Assembly (NCBI RefSeq): GCF_010671945.1 | Contig: NZ_JAAHIE010000031.1 | Span: 1 to 33,033, forward strand | Origin: Moorena sp. SIO4E2 | Lineage (GTDB): Bacteria > Cyanobacteriota > Cyanobacteriia > Cyanobacteriales > Coleofasciculaceae | DNA: 33,033 nucleotides | Direction of reading: 5' to 3' | Shown here: positions 3,397 to 32,016 of the stretch, in pieces | Numbering within the stretch: position 1 is the first letter of the stretch | How the letters are laid out: each line of letters starts with the position of its first letter | Translations under genes and position numbers: made by a program | The notes under the pieces: generated by a model | Told to the model about the DNA's origin: nothing | Database searches by the model: none | What the model saw: the letters and a program-made list of their open reading frames with translations, nothing else

Positions 3397-3650
3397 TAAC
3401 TAAAGAAGTATGAAATATAAAGTATGAAGTATGAAGTATGAAGTATGTCATGAATTGGTTAATCAGCTAATCCGATCAATCCTAGGTTGGCCCAAGGACC
3501 GTTTGGCATATACTGAGCTGATTATTGCTCGAACTGATGCTCTAATCTACAGGGGCTTCCAGCTGATAGCTGGCAAGCCTAGATTTTTAAGTAGCGAGTC
3601 AGCTGACGGCTCTTAGTAGATCCTTCATCCTTCATGCTTCATCCTTTACC
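3397..3650. repeat. STRR-type heptamer tandem repeats in the rpsH-rplF spacer
   Basis: (GTATGAA)x5 at 3397-3445 and CCTTCAT-type heptamers at 3615-3650. The spacer is unusually long (262 nt). Confidence 0.85.
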
Positions 3651-8139: not shown

Positions 8140-8215
8140 CGCTCGTTAGTTTTTAGTTGTTAGTTGGTAGTTAATAGTTGCTAGTTGGTAGTGATTAGTT
8201 GCTATTTACAACGTT
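8140..8215. repeat. STRR heptamer repeats (TAGTTGG/TAGTTGC/TAGTTAA) in the rplB-rpsS spacer
   Basis: Direct reading. Confidence 0.85.
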
Positions 8216-9109: not shown

Positions 9110-9230
9110 CAAGTATTTTTTACTTAGTTTGTCTTGACTAGTTTGTCTTGACTAGTTTGTCTTAACAATTGACAATCTACCAATTGGCAATTAACCAAAT
9201 TAATAATTAGCAATTAGCAATTAGCCAGTT
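9110..9230. repeat. Tandem 13-mer (TAGTTTGTCTTGAC x3) followed by STRR heptamers (CAATTGG/CAATTAG/CAATTAA) in the rplW-rplB spacer
   Basis: Direct reading. Confidence 0.85.
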
Positions 9231-11110: not shown

Positions 11111-11582
11111 TCTCGTTCAATTGCGTTGACTGGTCAGAAAAGGCTATTCAACTTGCCTGACTTCGCTGGGACTTAAGTTGTTAATAACTCAGTATCCCTT
11201 GATCCACGAAATTGTAAGCAATTATTGACCTAAAGCAGACCCAAGAACTGATGGGACTTGTTTATACCTAACTGTCTTTGATCTACTTTAGCCCTGATGC
11301 CAAACAAACGCCTGGTATGCTGTCTATATTGTCTTGCCTCGAACCTACTTCTCAGCCCACAGCACACCCAGATCATCAGTTGCTGAGGAAGCAACTGTCA
11401 TAATGTCACTATTATATAGTATATAGTATTTTGCTAAGGGTGTCTAGTTAGTTTGAGAATTAGTTTGAGAAAAATTTGCTTGCTGTATGGATTTATGTGA
11501 AATCGGGGGATTCGGAGCTCGAAGGATGCGTTCGCGTAGCGTAGCCCTTCGGGCTAATCGCATAGTCTTGAAACCAAATTAT

Positions 11583-14614: not shown

Positions 14615-16102
14615 TTGATGATGCAAAAGAAAGTAGGCGCAGTAAAGAAGATATCGACTCAGGTCGTCCCAGTTGTAGGGATAGCTAAGTCGGTTGAGCT
14701 TGAGCTGTTGTCTACGATGAAAAAACTAGGCGTCGTCAGGTCTGAGTCTTACAACAAGCTGGGTAGTATAAGTCATTGGGGACTTGACTGGAAAAAAGCC
14801 TACCCAGAAGTCAGGGACTTCAGGAAGCCTGAGTCCCTGGGCTTGCCTTCCAAGTTAATGGAATGGACTGTCAGTGATGTAGCTAAAACTATCACAGCTC
14901 AACAAGCGGCTTCCATTGAGGCAGTCATAAAAAAGATCTATAAGAGGTTTCCTGGAAAGGAAAACCAGAAGATCAGAAAGGATATCTCTAAGCAACTCAA
15001 AACTTCAGCTTTTCTGGATAATCCACTATTGCACAGACTTGTAAGGAAAGAGTTTCAGAGAGGACATTCTTGGGTCAAGAATCAAGTTGTATACCAACAA
15101 GGAGGATACTCGTGTAAACGATTGTCTCGTTATACTTATCAATTGGAATTAGCTGGAATCAGAAGAGGAAAAAGAAACAAACTAATAGTTAGGTCTAATC
15201 GAAATATTAAAGGACAGATTAGACTAATATACAACTCTCTACTGGCAAGATTTGAGATTCATTTTTTGGTTAATCACGGGACAGCTGAGATTCCTCCTGA
15301 ACGTCGAGCGATAGGAGTAGACAAGGGATACACCGAGGCTTTTTATGATTCAGATGGTCAGGCACACGGGAAGAACCTGGGCAAAATAGCAACCATAAAA
15401 TCCGTTCGCGTAGCGTGGCCTTTTGGCCATCGAATATGCGCCAAAAATCGGAACAGAGGAAAACTCTGGGCAATACATAGGAAGCTAGAAAAAATAGATC
15501 CAGCTAAATCAGCTCGGATACTGAAAAATAATCTGAGTCGAAAAACAGAAAACAGTCGTTACAGAAGAGATCAATCAGAGTTGAGGGCGATTATAGGGGC
15601 TGCTTCTAAATCCCTCTTCAAAGGAGAATCTCTAAGAATTTTTGCTGAGGATTTAACGCAACCAATCAAAAATAAACGCCAGTCAAAGGCTATGTCTCGC
15701 AAGTTGAATAGCTGGATGAAAGGAGAAATGCGGTACTCCTTGCAGAAATGGGCTAATTGGACTGGTTCGGTTGTGACAGAAGTCCAGCCAAGCTACACGT
15801 CGCAAATTGACTCCTTTTCTGGCACCTTATTGGGAGCAAGGATTGGGGACAGTTTTATCAGATTTAATGGGGTCGTGTTGCAGGCTGATCACAATGCTGC
15901 GAAGAATATCCTTGCTCGTGGTACAGATCAAGGAATCTCCCGGTTTATGACTAGGGTTGAAGTGCAGGCAGTATTGTTGCGTCGTACTGCGCGTTTCTTA
16001 GAAGGTATGGATTTGACTTTAGCTGACGCGGTTAAGCTAGGATGGCTTGACCGCAAGCATGCCAAAACTCAAGCTTTTAAGGAACTCCTCACCGGGATGT
16101 GA
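14615..16102 (+). CDS. tnpB: IS200/IS605-family TnpB-like RuvC nuclease (OrfB). Divergent variant lacking the zinc-finger cysteines. First ATG at 14618.
   Basis: RuvC-I is GVDKGYTEAFYDSDG, RuvC-II is LRIFAEDL...SVVTEVQPSYTSQID, RuvC-III is LQADHNAAKNI. The four expected ZnF Cys positions read SFSG...RFNG instead. The N-terminal 230 aa have a WED/REC-like layout. Confidence 0.8.
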   Translation: MMMQKKVGAVKKISTQVVPVVGIAKSVELELLSTMKKLGVVRSESYNKLGSISHWGLDWKKAYPEVRDFRKPESLGLPSKLMEWTVSDVAKTITAQQAASIEAVIKKIYKRFPGKENQKIRKDISKQLKTSAFLDNPLLHRLVRKEFQRGHSWVKNQVVYQQGGYSCKRLSRYTYQLELAGIRRGKRNKLIVRSNRNIKGQIRLIYNSLLARFEIHFLVNHGTAEIPPERRAIGVDKGYTEAFYDSDGQAHGKNLGKIATIKSVRVAWPFGHRICAKNRNRGKLWAIHRKLEKIDPAKSARILKNNLSRKTENSRYRRDQSELRAIIGAASKSLFKGESLRIFAEDLTQPIKNKRQSKAMSRKLNSWMKGEMRYSLQKWANWTGSVVTEVQPSYTSQIDSFSGTLLGARIGDSFIRFNGVVLQADHNAAKNILARGTDQGISRFMTRVEVQAVLLRRTARFLEGMDLTLADAVKLGWLDRKHAKTQAFKELLTGM

Positions 16103-16223: not shown

Positions 16224-16697
16224 TTAAGAGTATTCCTTAGCTCTTGCTTCTGCTGTTGCCTGACCTGTAGACTCAATGGCTATATTTTCTGCCTTTGACA
16301 CTCCCCGTCCTAGAAGAACGGGGAGTGTCAAATCCCCTACCAGTTTCTCGTTTGGATAAAGGGGAAACGGATCTTGCGCGAAACGAATTTCCAGATCACC
16401 GTAGCGCAGTCGAATTTGACCATGCTGATCAGCAATGGGTTGACCGTCTTCATCCCGGAGTAATGGATTAGCCACCACACAATAATATCGAGGCGGCACA
16501 ATAATCATCGGTTCAGGTTTTAAGATCAGCCGCTCGTGATCCCGAAGGGTAATGGTTTGAGGACCAACCTCCAGTCGCGTAACACCAGTATTGTTGTCTA
16601 GCACATGAATAAACTGTTGGGGCTTGATGCGAATCACTTCACTAGTTGTTCTAGGCACTTCCATTTTCTTCTCTGTTTTACGCTCAGTTGTAGTCAT
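16224..16697 (-). CDS. Major vault protein homolog, 5' portion: MVP repeats 1-2 plus a short shoulder/cap-helix-like tail. The gene is truncated/disrupted by the tnpB element.
   Basis: 157 aa. [29 protein letters not shown]...[14 protein letters not shown]...[37 protein letters not shown] compares with metazoan MVP [29 protein letters not shown]...VTVPPRHYCTVANP...[37 protein letters not shown]. The tail [17 protein letters not shown] resembles MVP AVESTGTAKAEAESRAE. Confidence 0.8.
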   Translation of the reverse strand: [157 protein letters not shown]

Positions 16698-17348: not shown

Positions 17349-18218
17349 ATGAATCGTGATGACTTCCTAAAACGCTACGAAGCCGGTGAAAGAGATTTTT
17401 CTGGTATTAATTTGAAAAAGGCTAACTTAAAAAGTACTAATTTCAAGGGTGTTTGTCTAAAAAATGCGGACTTGAGTAATGCTGATTTAGAGGAAGCTAC
17501 TTGGGATGATGTAGATCTAAGTCATGCTAACTTGAGGAATGCTTACCTATACGAAACCACTATCGAAAATTCTAACCTTACTAAGGCTAACTTGAGTCAT
17601 ATAGTAGCCTCTGAATCAACCTTGGAAAACTGTGATTTTAGTGGTACTGATCTGAGTTATGCGGATTTATCTGTAATCTATATAGCTACTAGTAAGCTCA
17701 GGGATGCCAATTTTAGTTATGCTACCTTATGTGAGGTTTACGTAGGTGATTCTGACCTGAGCAATGCTAACCTCAGTTATGCCCGTATGCTAGGGGTTGA
17801 TGGCTGGAAAAAAGCTGACCTGAGTAGTATAAATTTTACCAAAGCTATCTATACGTCATACACTGAGTTTCCGACTGGATTTAACCCATCAAAAGCCGGA
17901 GCAATCTTTATTTGTGCCGAGGCTGACTTAAGCGGTTTAGACTTGAAAAATGTCAACCTAGGTTATGAAGAACTGTGTGGCGCTAACCTTAGTCATGCTA
18001 ATTTGAGTGGTGCAAGACTGTATAATACTGACTTGAGAGCCGCCAACCTAAGTTATGCCAATTTAGAAGGTGTTGACTTTCATGATGCTGATTTGAGTGA
18101 GGCTAATTTCAGCCATGCTAATCTTAAAAAGGCTAAATTAGCTAAGGCTGACTTAAATGATGCTATTTTCTGTAACACTATTATGCCTAATGGCAGGATT
18201 AAAAATAATAATTGTTAG
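17349..18218 (+). CDS. Pentapeptide-repeat protein
   Basis: 289 aa, dominated by A(N/D)L(S/K)xA(N/D)L pentapeptide repeats (ANLKSTNFKGVCLKNADLSNADLEEA...). AAGGGG SD-like sequence upstream. Confidence 0.85.
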   Translation: MNRDDFLKRYEAGERDFSGINLKKANLKSTNFKGVCLKNADLSNADLEEATWDDVDLSHANLRNAYLYETTIENSNLTKANLSHIVASESTLENCDFSGTDLSYADLSVIYIATSKLRDANFSYATLCEVYVGDSDLSNANLSYARMLGVDGWKKADLSSINFTKAIYTSYTEFPTGFNPSKAGAIFICAEADLSGLDLKNVNLGYEELCGANLSHANLSGARLYNTDLRAANLSYANLEGVDFHDADLSEANFSHANLKKAKLAKADLNDAIFCNTIMPNGRIKNNNC

Positions 18219-18561: not shown

Positions 18562-21462
18562 TCAATTGCGCAGAATCAACCGTTGCCGATGAACATGCAA
18601 CAAACGAAACTCCCGCTGCGCCACCTGCTCCAACATATAAATAATGTGCTCTGGTCGCAACATCGTGCCATCATTCAAACAACTCCCCACATACCGCAAA
18701 ACCACCCCAGACTCCGCAACCTCCTCTTCACCATCTTTGGATTTTTGGGGTTCGATCACCTCGAAGTCAAATAAGCGATCGCATAAATTCACCCACTGCT
18801 TCTTCCCCGACTTCGTAAACCGCTCCCACCAAATTTCCTTACTACCTTTGATTGCTTCAATCCAACCCTGCCACTCTTCCCAAGACGCTTCTGATATTAC
18901 CTCAACTCGAATCAAATACTCAGCTCTCTCCAACAGCTGAGTTCCCGCAGGTTCCTTCAAATCCACTGCTTCAACCCCATACACCGGAATCTCTTCAGGC
19001 AACTGAGACACCAGCCTTTCCCTAAACTCCTCAACTGGCATTTTCTCAGTTAACTCAAACTCCACAATCTCCCCACTGCTAGACGCTCCCAAGGGCAACG
19101 CATTAGCAATCATAATCCGAGCATTAGCCCGAAACCCCCCACTATATCGAATTGGCAGTGACGCCCGTCTTACTGCTCTCTCAAACAGACTTGCCAAATC
19201 CAGATGACCCAACAAGGTCATATCCCCCAACTTTCCAAACCAAACCCGCAGCCGCTGATCCTTATTAGTATTGGGTTTAAAGTGACCAGCAAATTGCGGA
19301 ATCTGTGGCGGGTCAATCACCACATTATGACCAAAATCAATCCCACACACACCACAGTGAGAACACCCATCAAAGGAACAATCCGGTACCGTTGCTGCAT
19401 CTAACGCCCGTTGTAAATCTTCCTTGAGCCAATTCTTATCAATTCCCGTATCAATATGATCCCAAGGCAAGGGAGCATCAAGGGCGTTAAGGGTTGACGG
19501 TTGAAGGTTAGCTGGTTGAAGGTTAGCTGGTTGAAGGTTAGAAGGTTGAAGGTTAGAAGGTTGAAGGTTAGAAGGTTGAAGGTTAGAAGGTTGAAGGTTA
19601 GTTGGTTGAAGGTTAGTTGGTTGAAGGTTAGCTGGTTGAAGGTTAGTTGGTTGTCGGTTAGTTGGTTGTCGGTTAGTTGGTTGTAGGTTAGCTGGTTGTA
19701 GGTTAGCTGGTTGCTCTGAACTTTCAACCTTGGCCTTTTGGCCACGCTTCGCGAACAACCTTCCAACTTGCAACTCTTCTACACCCGCCATCACGTTCCA
19801 TTCGCCATTTTCTACTTGGCGATATTTCCAGGTCAGACCTGATGAAGCGATCGCATTTTCCCAAGCAGCAAATGCCCGATCCAAGCTTTCCATCCAGGAG
19901 TCCATCCCTGCCCCCAATTCCCAAGCACGGCGCACCACCGCACTTAAGCGTCTGTCACCCCGTCCCACGAAATCTTCCATGGCCGAAATCCGAACATCGG
20001 TGTAATTAACCTTCACCCCCCTGATCTGACCAAATACTTGTTTGAGTAATTCCTGCTTGCGTTCAAACTCCGAAGTCGATACGGAATGCCACTGGAATGG
20101 GGTGTGAGGTTTTGGGGTAAAATTAGAAACAGTTATGTTAAACTTAATGGTTTTTCTGCCTTTAGCACGGCACTCCTGCTGCAACCAACGCACCGTTTCC
20201 GCAATCCCCAACACATCCATATCCGTTTCACCGGGCAAACCAATCATAAAATAGAGCTTGACTTTCTCCCAGCCTTGCTCAAATGCCGTCTTTACTCCCC
20301 TGAGCAGTTCTTCATTAGTCAGTCCCTTATTAACAATATCCCGCATCCGCTGAGTTCCTGCTTCTGGGGCAAAGGTCAAGCCACTCTGCCGATTGCCCCC
20401 TAGGATATTGGCAATATTCTCATCAAAGCGGTCTACCCGCTGACTCGGTAGGGACAAGGAAATATTCTGATCCTTAAGACGATTTTTGATTTCCATCCCC
20501 ACCGCTGGTAGAGCCAGGTAATCCGAACAACTCAGGGATAGAAGGGAAAACTCGTTATACCCTGTAGCACGCATCCCTTGTTCAATAGCTTCCACCACTT
20601 TTTCTGGTTCCACATCCCGCGCTGGTCGAGTCAGCATCCCAGGTTGGCAGAAGCGACAACCCCGAGTACAGCCCCGTCGCACTTCGATCTTGAGTCGGTC
20701 ATGAACCGTTTGGATATAGGGTACTAGTCCAATAGCATAGGCAGGCATCGGTGTAGCCACACGCCGCAAAATCCGCTTCGGCACATCAGGGCGGTTGGGT
20801 TTAACTGAGCCATCCTCAGTCATATCATAGAATTGGGGGACATACACCCCTGGTATCTGAGCCAAATCCAGGAGTAACGCTTCTCGACTTAAGCCAGCTG
20901 CTTTGCCTTCTTCGATTACTAAGCCAATCTCTGGCAACAATTCTTCCCCATCGCCAAGATCAACAAAATCTAAGAAATCAGCATAGGGTTCAGGATTCGA
21001 TGTCGCCGTTTGTCCACCTGCAAAAATTAGGGGTATTTCCGATATATCAAACTGAGCACGGTCTTTCCAGGTCAGGGGAATTCCTCCCAAATCCAACATT
21101 TCCAAGATGTTGGTTGCCCCTAATTCATAGCTAAGGCTAAAGCCAATAATATCAAAATCTTTCAGAGGTCGCCGATTCTCGACAGCAAACAGAGGGGTTT
21201 GAGTGGAACGTAATTTAGCTGCCAAGTCTGGGGCAGGTAGATAGGCGCGATCGCATAATTGCCTAGGTTGATAATTCAATATATTGTAGAGGATGATATG
21301 GCCTAAGTTAGAAGCCCCCACTTCATAGATTTCTGGATAAGTCAATACCCAGCGTACCTCAGCTTCTTCCCAAGGTTTATGGACTGCTCCCAACTCGTTA
21401 CCTAAGTAACGGGCTGGTCTGTTGATGTCTGGTGTTAATATTTCCTCTACAGTGATTGCCAT
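18562..21462 (-). CDS. B12-binding-type radical SAM protein (TIGR03960-like) fused to a DUF2344/TIGR03936-like C-terminal domain, with a 15-copy pentapeptide linker
   Basis: 966 aa. The N-terminus MAITVEEILTPDINRPARYLGNELGAVHKPWEEAEVRWVLTYPEIYEVGASNLGHIILYN is typical of this radical-SAM family, and CTRGCRFC is the SAM cluster motif. The C-terminal 270 aa (RLRVWFGKLGDMTLLGHLDL...) are the usually separate DUF2344 partner. Confidence 0.8.
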   Translation of the reverse strand: MAITVEEILTPDINRPARYLGNELGAVHKPWEEAEVRWVLTYPEIYEVGASNLGHIILYNILNYQPRQLCDRAYLPAPDLAAKLRSTQTPLFAVENRRPLKDFDIIGFSLSYELGATNILEMLDLGGIPLTWKDRAQFDISEIPLIFAGGQTATSNPEPYADFLDFVDLGDGEELLPEIGLVIEEGKAAGLSREALLLDLAQIPGVYVPQFYDMTEDGSVKPNRPDVPKRILRRVATPMPAYAIGLVPYIQTVHDRLKIEVRRGCTRGCRFCQPGMLTRPARDVEPEKVVEAIEQGMRATGYNEFSLLSLSCSDYLALPAVGMEIKNRLKDQNISLSLPSQRVDRFDENIANILGGNRQSGLTFAPEAGTQRMRDIVNKGLTNEELLRGVKTAFEQGWEKVKLYFMIGLPGETDMDVLGIAETVRWLQQECRAKGRKTIKFNITVSNFTPKPHTPFQWHSVSTSEFERKQELLKQVFGQIRGVKVNYTDVRISAMEDFVGRGDRRLSAVVRRAWELGAGMDSWMESLDRAFAAWENAIASSGLTWKYRQVENGEWNVMAGVEELQVGRLFAKRGQKAKVESSEQPANLQPANLQPTNRQPTNRQPTNLQPANLQPTNLQPTNLQPSNLQPSNLQPSNLQPSNLQPANLQPANLQPSTLNALDAPLPWDHIDTGIDKNWLKEDLQRALDAATVPDCSFDGCSHCGVCGIDFGHNVVIDPPQIPQFAGHFKPNTNKDQRLRVWFGKLGDMTLLGHLDLASLFERAVRRASLPIRYSGGFRANARIMIANALPLGASSSGEIVEFELTEKMPVEEFRERLVSQLPEEIPVYGVEAVDLKEPAGTQLLERAEYLIRVEVISEASWEEWQGWIEAIKGSKEIWWERFTKSGKKQWVNLCDRLFDFEVIEPQKSKDGEEEVAESGVVLRYVGSCLNDGTMLRPEHIIYMLEQVAQREFRLLHVHRQRLILRN
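19493..19712. repeat. 15-bp tandem repeat array, about 14.7 copies (GGTTGAAGGTTAGCT and variants), in-frame inside the radical-SAM gene
   Basis: Visible direct repeats. The coding frame reads QPANL QPANL QPTNR QPTNR QPTNL QPANL QPTNL QPTNL QPSNL x4 QPANL x2 QPSTL. The other two frames give the artifactual repeat ORFs 19401-19766 and 19501-19686. Confidence 0.9.
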
Positions 21463-31004: not shown

Positions 31005-31347
31005 CAGTTCTGATAACCCGGGTAGCGTTTACCAAATCCACCTCCCCCCAGTCTATCCTGTGTTGTTGAGATACCCAACTCGGCAGACGGGGTCAAGTCT
31101 AAAGTCTGAAGTCTGAAGTCTGAAGTTGTCAGTGGTCAGTGTAACTCCTGGTTGGGTCGCAAGTTTTTAGTTAACCATGTCTTGATGCAGAGCGCGAGTG
31201 GGGGAATTCCCCGTGAGGCCACTGCATCGCGCGCCTCAGCCATCGATCACCCCATTTCATCCTTCATCCTTCATCCTTCATCCTTCTTATTTGATATTTC
31301 ATTCTTCACACGGGAAATATCCCAGAGGAAGACCGTGATTGTTCACC

Positions 31348-31563: not shown

Positions 31564-31735
31564 GATTGGTTGTGATTGGTGATTGGTTATTTAGGTTACT
31601 GGTTACTGATTATAGTCATTTGTTCTTTGGTAAGTATTCAGCTATCAGCTATCAGCTATCAGCTATCAGTTATCAGTTATCAGCTTATGGGCTATCAGTT
31701 ATCAGCTTATGAGCTATTAGCACGCTACTTAAGCT
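31560..31735. repeat. STRR heptamer arrays (GATTGGT, CAGCTAT x4, CAGTTAT) in the rpmG-rpsR spacer
   Basis: Direct reading. Spurious ORF 31576-31767 is generated by the repeats. Confidence 0.85.
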
Positions 31736-32016
31736 GCTTAGGTTTCTTTTATTCTGACGGCACCTGAAGTAGAGTGAGCCATTCGCGTAGCGTGACTCAA
31801 AGGCCAATGTTCACGGCTGACCACTGAATGCTTACAATAAAACAGGTAAGCATTGGTTTAAGCTGAGTTACTTGAGCTGACCGCTGATAGCTGACCGCTG
31901 AACGCGCACGCGTGTGCGTAGCACATAAGCTGAATACTTGTTCTTTGTTGCTTGTTCTTTGTCAATAGTCCATTTTCAATTAACAAATTCAATTCACAAA
32001 TGACCAAGGACCAAAT

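Follow-up and report, generated by a model that had tools for sequence, protein, structure and literature searches.

An in-frame 15-nt repeat array in a Moorena radical-SAM gene, probably the expanded arm of a palindromic heptamer-type element

The host gene and its encoded repeat

The subject of this work is a tandem array of 15-nt units that lies in frame within a radical-SAM gene of Moorena. The stretch of DNA analysed, referred to here as the window, is 33,033 nt long and is a 33-kb contig from an assembly of the metagenome-assembled genome (MAG) type. The gene occupies 18562..21462 on the minus strand and encodes a protein of 966 aa, in which the open reading frame (ORF) list together with Pfam and NCBIfam identifies a TIGR03960 B12-binding radical-SAM protein fused to a TIGR03936/DUF2344 radical-SAM-associated protein. 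The Pfam domains found are PF19864, PF04055 (radical SAM) and PF10105 (DUF2344), and the protein lies above the NCBIfam cut-offs for both TIGR03960 (597.6 vs. 462.3 bits) and TIGR03936 (186.4 vs. 71.9 bits). A protein annotated as Moorena (P0001) is 100% identical to it.

The N-terminal TIGR03960 match in the NCBIfam search (19807..21441, minus strand) covers aa 8–552 and profile positions 3–551. It includes the radical-SAM motif CX3CX2C, present as CTRGCRFC at aa 265–272 (20647–20670). Beyond the array, homology to TIGR03960 resumes (19345..19470, minus strand; NCBIfam profile and orthologue columns), with profile positions 558–600 aligning to aa 665–708. This part holds the anchor LPWDHID (19450–19470) and a CX4CX2CX2C motif (19345–19380), whose residues C695, C700, C703 and C706 are invariant across 97 cyanobacterial orthologues. 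The DUF2344/TIGR03936 domain follows at aa 737–962 (18577..19254, minus strand; Pfam and NCBIfam). The array thus interrupts the C-terminal part of the TIGR03960 region, ∼35 residues upstream of the 4-Cys motif, and does not lie exactly between the two halves of the protein, where an earlier reading made from the sequence only had placed it. The description of the host as a conserved housekeeping enzyme in that same sequence-only reading was an assumption. The family is widespread and its function is uncharacterised: NCBIfam ranks the entry as a hypothetical equivalog, and we found no literature on the function of DUF2344/TIGR03960.

The array itself spans 19489..19713 on the minus strand and encodes 15 pentapeptides of the form QP[ATS][NT][LR] at aa 584–658, as delimited by Tandem Repeats Finder (TRF), pattern search and codon listing. 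We interpret it below as the right arm of a palindromic element. TRF reports a period of 15 over 19499–19713, with 14.3 copies, 95% matches, 0 indels and a score of 297 for the consensus GGTTGAAGGTTAGCT. When up to two mismatches are allowed, GGTTGAAGGTTAGCT matches 12 times in the window, all within 19499–19708, where shuffled sequences lead one to expect 0.06 matches. On the coding strand the unit reads CAACC-NN-CTAAC-CTT, and the pentapeptides follow each other in the order QPANL (twice), QPTNR (twice), QPTNL, QPANL, QPTNL (twice), QPSNL (four times), QPANL (twice) and QPSTL, flanked by the junction peptides KVESSEQPANL and QPSTLNALDAPLPW. TRF and the translation of the ORF agree that the array is in frame, the coordinates proposed earlier (19493–19712) were off by a few bases only, and the variant units are laid out in runs as had been described.

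The array peptide consists mainly of Q (20%), P (20%), N (19%) and L (17%), with K and R nearly absent. With its five-residue period and its [AST]-N-L triplets matching A(D/N)L it resembles the pentapeptide-repeat proteins (PF00805): the 15 [AST]NLQP units fit A(D/N)LXX and could fold as a right-handed quadrilateral beta-helix (Rfr) of ∼3.75 coils. With phmmer, matches in register on A-N-L were obtained to the designed protein beta1 (4yc5, E 1.5e-23), Np275/276 (2j8k), Rfr (2o6w) and Alr5209 (6omx), all with E-values that are inflated for a perfectly periodic query, and NCBIfam gave weak matches to the HetL and Alr5209 models. However, these models reach only ∼31 bits against cut-offs of 260 and 125, PF13599 reaches 20.6 against 38 bits and PF00805 gives no match at E ≤ 10. 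For comparison, a true pentapeptide-repeat gene, convergent with and just downstream of the radical-SAM gene (17349–18218, plus strand; canonical, PF00805, E 1.8e-58), reaches 194 bits. The core Leu is Arg in two units of the window array and Gln in most units of the orthologues L002, L006 and P0009-13, and copy numbers from 2 to 16 disregard coils of four repeats. Every unit has a Pro at position i+2; a Pro there lacks a backbone NH and is ill-suited to the turn of a beta-helix. AlphaFold2 (AF2) predicts no strands or other beta structure, although the low quality of the models makes this weak evidence. We consider a pentapeptide-repeat domain very unlikely, and we rejected the neighbouring gene at 17349–18218 as the source of the array, since the 15-mer has no match with ≤2 mismatches outside the array.

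The full-length AF2 model, built with the 97 cyanobacterial orthologues, has a mean pLDDT of 54.7, and the DUF2344 domain is the only well-predicted part. The model is poor because the alignment is shallow (at least 75% identity). The array stretch has a pLDDT of ∼25 and no secondary structure in this model, and none when it is modelled alone (pTM 0.13). When the (QPxNL)15 peptide by itself was used as a protein query, no match was obtained, probably because its low-complexity words are not indexed. Most likely the peptide is an unstructured, proline-stiffened excursion on the protein surface. The additional 75–110 residues are not to be taken for a domain, and the pentapeptide-repeat matches are a trap for automatic annotation.

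Length variation among strains and homologues

Copy number at this site differs among strains of Moorena. The window shares its 15 units with L084, L085 and L086, whereas 16 units are found in L081 (Moorea sp. SIO1G6), 13 in L082 (M. producens JHB, CP017708.2, 9.65-Mb contig) and only 2 in L083 (M. producens PAL-8-15-08-1, CP017599.1, 9.67-Mb contig). L003, L001 (M. bouillonii), L002 and L006 carry mosaics, in which 15-nt units are combined with 39-nt units or with units of the QQP type. All seven Moorena alleles available at the DNA level are in frame, with linkers of 69–336 nt that are all multiples of 3. A phase-variable on/off contingency locus was rejected on these grounds, as the 15-nt unit cannot shift the frame. 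The length polymorphism at strain level that had been predicted is therefore present, and a fixed copy number was not seen among the orthologues.

The closest pairs show how the array changes. L081 differs from the window at a single position in 2,580 nt of flanking coding sequence, while its array has one extra QPSNL unit and a shifted pattern of CTA/CGA/CTT units, corresponding to about three gains or losses of units. In contrast, L084 and L085 differ at 5 nt within the gene and their arrays are nucleotide-identical. From these comparisons we conclude that the array evolves faster per site than its flanks without being wildly unstable. The stepwise slippage proposed earlier from the run-wise layout fits these data. 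Because of the runs of identical units and the differences of plus or minus one unit between near-identical strains, we suspect that the array changes by replication slippage or by unequal recombination between near-identical units, in 15-nt steps that would be neutral to the frame. The array could also serve as a marker for typing Moorena strains (2–16 units), subject to direct sizing.

Length and order of the units could in principle result from short-read mis-assembly, as the 33-kb contig is of the MAG type and arrays of 225 nt come near the read length. We regard this as extremely improbable. Other assemblies, represented by L084, L085 and L086, contain the array without a single nucleotide difference, and the same 966-aa protein is encoded on a contig of 8.17 Mb. 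Within the array, interspersed variants anchor the assembly path, the longest run of identical units being only 60 nt. In addition, the chromosome-scale JHB and PAL contigs carry their 13 and 2 units at the same site.

A representative search yielded 138 distant homologues (35–45% identity), which were aligned with the window protein. The segment equivalent to Y547–P666, which is 118 aa long in the window protein, has a length of 12–13 aa in 124 of them, with a short consensus such as FYTYRERAENEIL. The maximum is 19 aa, apart from one outlier of 44 aa (P0141), whose cyanobacterial-type sequence suggests that it is a fragment. Among 110 cyanobacterial orthologues, on the other hand, the variable stretch that follows GEW can be as short as 15 aa or as long as 115 aa (median 30.5) and consists of unrelated low-complexity sequences. 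The site is thus permissive, and a loop that tolerates 12 to 118 residues marks a surface site that could be useful for tagging or engineering the protein. As most of the distant homologues are also fused, and yet have a fixed connection of 12–13 aa inside the TIGR03960 region, we rejected the possibility that the array sits where two ancestral genes were once joined.

Using a lenient score cut-off, TRF detected tandem repeats in the loop segment or ≤30 nt from it at 35 of 81 cyanobacterial loci, a count that includes several low-scoring matches falling in the conserved flank and not in the linker. The clear cases are other heptamers or octamers, namely ACCACCT ×6.4 (Symploca MAG) and GGAGATGG ×4.6. 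At L004 (4735–5001), ACCACCT ×6.4 lies in the loop of the orthologue and is read TTYHLPP, and the GGAGATGG units in the linkers of L058/L059 are read MGRWGDGEMGR. Among other cyanobacteria, the loop peptide is made from 21-nt units (AAGSRQK..) or has sequences like VGAGLADNV..QNPP (P0034 and P0019/P0026). The tight connection throughout the wider family, set against long, variable, repeat-bearing segments in cyanobacteria, suggests that this connection became an expandable, permissive loop in cyanobacteria, which each lineage appears to have filled with its own short repeats.

These lengths also bear on whether the array is an adaptive tether, that is, a selected, proline-rich flexible spacer whose length tunes the reach from the radical-SAM core to the C-terminal Cys motif and DUF2344 module. 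With a Pro at every fifth residue and no bulky core residues, the array resembles known extended linkers. Selection for a spacer would also agree with the frame being kept in every case and with a loop that is expanded in all cyanobacterial orthologues seen. It is difficult to reconcile, however, with 15 to 115 aa of unrelated sequence across lineages, with close Moorena relatives that have 2 or 16 units, with the fixed 12–13 aa that suffice in distant homologues, or with the presence of the same repeat inside unrelated enzymes that need no tether (see below). We find this explanation distinctly unlikely. Because there is no sign of constraint on length or sequence, and because the connection is 12–13 aa in distant homologues, the peptide would be translated but tolerated rather than used.

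Palindromic structure and dispersal of the repeat

The array, with its period of 15, shows traces of a heptamer. Its autocorrelation is 0.95 at a shift of 15, and shifts of 7 and of 8 give secondary peaks of 0.54 each. In the short PAL allele, TRF detects CAACCTT ×3.7. For these reasons the 15-mer appears to be a 7+8 composite of the heptamer AACCTTC. Metagenomic copies of the repeat, described below, mix pure AACCTTC heptamers with 15-mers. The period of 15 had previously been contrasted with the heptameric STRRs (short tandemly repeated repetitive sequences) elsewhere in the window, which is misleading if the 15-mer itself is heptamer-derived. The window does contain numerous intergenic heptamer arrays, e.g., at 3405–3447, 8145–8204, 9162–9225, 31095–31126, 31256–31308 and 31638–31721. 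Their heptamers (GAAGTAT, GTTAGTT, TTAGCAA, AAGTCTG, TTCATCC and TCAGCTA) are typically STRR-like, and none of them is AACCTTC/GAAGGTT.

The coding sequence upstream of the array, ELQVGRL...KVESS (GAGTTGCAAGTTGGAAGGTTG...AAGGTTGAAAGT), is of the reverse-complementary GAAGGTT type. It can be divided into a proximal left arm at 19714..19731 (minus strand; AAGGTTGAAAGTTCAGAG, encoding KVESSE), recognised from the sequence listing and from the palindromes in L087/L088 as reverse-complementary in type to the array units, and a distal left arm at 19756..19776 (minus strand; GAGTTGCAAGTTGGAAGGTTG, encoding ELQVGRL), found as the inverted-repeat partner of the array units by inverted-repeat search and RNA fold. 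Along the 19 nt of positions 19756–19774, the distal arm shows 84% complementarity with several units of the array. In the linkers of L087 and L088, which come from other lineages (72–74% protein identity), near-perfect palindromes are seen, with (E)LKVEKLKVE followed by SSNLQPANLQPSNLQP, in the layout (LKVE)2 then (NLQPx)3-4. We therefore take the array for one of the two arms of an inverted-repeat element. Such an arm, which has the same sequence at other loci and in other genes, is not what one would expect of a locally invented tether, as the array had been described.

The palindrome could indicate a function at the level of the nucleic acid, with the peptide as a by-product. The RNA or DNA hairpin might act as a pause, an attenuator or an RNase site that uncouples the two halves of the gene, or as a signal for recombination or replication. 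The coding-strand RNA of 19470–19800 folds better than all of 100 shuffled sequences (z = -3.57), the palindrome is well kept in L087/L088, and many non-coding copies of the repeat have an upstream stretch of the inverted-arm type with which they could form a hairpin. However, the left arm in the window is short, its complementarity is 84% and a 24-nt insertion divides it, opposite a right arm of 15 units, so that the stem is arbitrary and most of the array is unpaired. Furthermore, the PAL allele has lost nearly all of the array, and no Rfam family matches 19200–20000 at E ≤ 1. We judge a nucleic-acid-level function unlikely.

An analysis of stop codons in idealised arms offers an explanation for the form that the repeat takes in genes. 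In a pure (GAAGGTT)n arm, each of the three frames is interrupted by TGA, and the 15-nt (7+8) version is open only when read as KLKVE. The common reading LKVE..NLQPx would thus arise because only 15-periodic copies in that frame lack stops and survive in genes.

Searching metagenome contigs for two exact units (CTAACCTTCAACCNNCTAACCTTCAACC) gave 27 other loci, and a tblastn search found this radical-SAM gene at none of them. The cyanobacterial HIP1 motif GCGATCGC is abundant on most of these contigs. Three of the contigs that carry the AACCTTC/CTAACCTTCAACC repeat have G+C contents of 0.65 (L089), 0.57 (L098) and 0.56 (L106), against 0.42–0.52 for the other repeat-bearing contigs. Most of the 27 copies are located where open frames are short, and in many cases a sequence rich in GTTGA/GTTGG, which is of the inverted-arm type, is found up to 150 nt upstream.

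Seven of the 27 copies are in frame within long ORFs, at about six distinct sites, as L093 and L102 represent the same site. Five of the host ORFs were scanned with Pfam, L111 being the sixth. They come from uncultured cyanobacteria: L102/L093 is a dihydroorotate dehydrogenase (DHO_dh, PyrD), L108 an AnmK kinase containing ten QPxNL units and L097 a synthase of the HMGL-like/LeuA type (HMGL-like/LeuA_dimer). L105 and L096 are two different histidine kinases, with the repeat in the HATPase_c domain and in the GAF domain, respectively. In each of the scanned hosts the repeat lengthens or splits the domain match. The in-frame inserts always read ...LKV[EG][RK]L[KN]VE[GS]S...(NLQPx)n...QPSTF/L. 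Since the repeats are identical while their surroundings are unrelated, the element may be mobile.

The insertion that splits the left arm is a second repeat, a 24-nt hairpin mini-element at 19732..19755 (plus strand; GGCCTTTTGGCCACGCTTCGCGAA), defined by its window copies and by allele comparison and read in frame as FAKRGQKA (aa 570–577). The sequence GGCCnnnnGGCCACGCTaCGCGAA (GGCCnnnnGGCCACGCTnCGCGAA) has four copies in the window with unrelated flanks, where 0 are expected: 11531–11554, 15405–15428 and 31782–31805 on the minus strand, and 19732–19755 on the plus strand. At the radical-SAM site the element is present in the window, L081 and L003, and absent from JHB, L001 and L002. In L003 and L001 it is found in the other orientation, fused to one 15-mer to give a 39-nt unit that has been amplified (GQKATLREQPSNL ×3-5), and L002 and L006 use a different reading frame, which gives WPKGHATG. 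One of the window copies lies inside the open frame at 14615–16102 (plus strand), where it is read ..VRVAWPFGH..; this ORF of 495 aa has a Cas12f1-like TNB domain (TnpB-like; PF07282, 28.3 bits). A further ORF in the window, of 157 aa at 16224–16697 (minus strand), matches PF17794 (E 1e-26), the repeat domain of Major Vault Protein, which is unusual for a cyanobacterium.

Interpretation and comparison with known systems

Taken together, we think it probable that a palindromic, STRR-like element gave rise to the array by expansion of its right arm, and that the array represents tolerated, slippage-prone repeat DNA in a permissive loop. A palindromic heptamer-type element, with a left arm of the GAAGGTT type and a right arm of the AACCTTC type, would have come to lodge in the permissive TIGR03960 loop. 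To judge from the stop codons, only the frame-compatible 15-nt form could have persisted in the gene, and its right arm would then have expanded. The alleles would have been remodelled further by the 24-nt hairpin element, inserted in either direction and co-amplified as part of the 39-nt unit.

Several observations weigh against this interpretation. The array is stable across several near-identical assemblies and is thus not extremely unstable, and short-read MAG assemblies could mis-size arrays. As the full-length AF2 model is poor overall, its low confidence for the linker says little about disorder, and the presumed neutrality is deduced from the lack of constraint on length or sequence. 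Neither the 15-mer nor the heptamer GAAGGTT is enriched outside the gene within the 33-kb window, and the dispersal is seen in metagenomes, probably of other filamentous cyanobacteria, rather than in a Moorena genome. The element in Moorena could therefore be ancient and purely local.

A broader reading is that a dispersed palindromic (GAAGGTT)n...(AACCTTC)n element of filamentous cyanobacteria colonises genes in frame and keeps expanding and contracting by slippage of units, with the TIGR03960 loop acting as a phylum-wide trap for the micro-repeats (heptamers, 24-nt hairpins) that happen to be active in a given lineage. We hold this to be plausible, with a likelihood somewhat short of even. 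We found no description of the palindromic element, its DNA motif or its peptide in the searchable literature. At this locus, short repeats of cyanobacteria that are usually treated as intergenic are seen entering and persisting in coding DNA. This appears to require both the 15-nt form, which is compatible with the frame, and a permissive loop.

The feature is best classed as an STRR-derived coding variable-number tandem repeat (VNTR) in a permissive loop. Coding VNTRs, such as the spa Xr region used for typing, are usually found in surface or secreted proteins under diversifying selection. Like these bacterial minisatellites, the array is an in-frame tandem repeat with a unit that is a multiple of three, a copy number that differs among strains (2, 13, 15, 16 and mosaics), variants in runs and probable slippage. 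Unlike typical coding VNTRs, its host is a cytoplasmic radical-SAM enzyme and its repeat appears to come from a dispersed family.

The element also behaves like the STRRs of filamentous cyanobacteria. In Nostoc species, heptameric simple sequence repeats are reported to be mostly intergenic and strongly over-represented there (PMC4692102). The repeat described here resembles STRRs in its variable copy number, in units that appear to be built on a heptamer (AACCTTC/GAAGGTT) and, as far as the metagenomic copies go, in its presence at many mostly non-coding loci, often as tandem inverted arrays. There is also a precedent for STRRs lodging in the variable part of a functional gene, as they have been described inside the RNase P RNA gene (Vioque, 1997, as cited in PMC7593598). 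The Moorena array differs in being located in a protein-coding gene, with a 15-nt (7+8) period that keeps the frame and avoids TGA, and in its host, as Moorena forms no heterocysts.

The 24-nt element can be likened to the small dispersed repeats (SDRs) of Nostocaceae, which Elhai and co-workers are said to have described in 2008 as stem-loops of 21–27 nt nested in tandem repeats. It has a length of ∼24 nt and a stem-loop GGCC-N4-GGCC, is dispersed with 4 copies in 33 kb, is nested in tandem repeats and shows insertion polymorphism, all of which are reportedly SDR-like properties; the likeness is one of size, structure and setting. Its occurrence in Moorena sets it apart, as HIP1-rich genomes from outside Nostocaceae yielded neither SDRs nor SDR-like repeats (PMC5861425).

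In its behaviour the larger element recalls the Rickettsia palindromic elements (RPEs), which are palindromic repeats found in frame within unrelated protein-coding genes (PMC10969869). It is likewise palindromic, occurs in frame in conserved proteins that have no relation to one another (with DHO_dh, AnmK, HMGL-like/LeuA, HATPase_c and GAF as contexts), gives a constant peptide LKVE..NLQPx and interrupts domains at apparently permissive places. RPEs, however, are of fixed length (∼150 bp) and resemble miniature inverted-repeat transposable elements, whereas the Moorena-type element is made of short tandem units and its arms expand and contract stepwise. The comparison is one of behaviour, not of homology. 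The metagenomic loci support the possibility of an RPE-like, slippage-active family that colonises cyanobacterial ORFs. If the element indeed moves and colonises many genes in frame, this would add a second and mechanistically different case of RPE-like “selfish DNA in proteins.”

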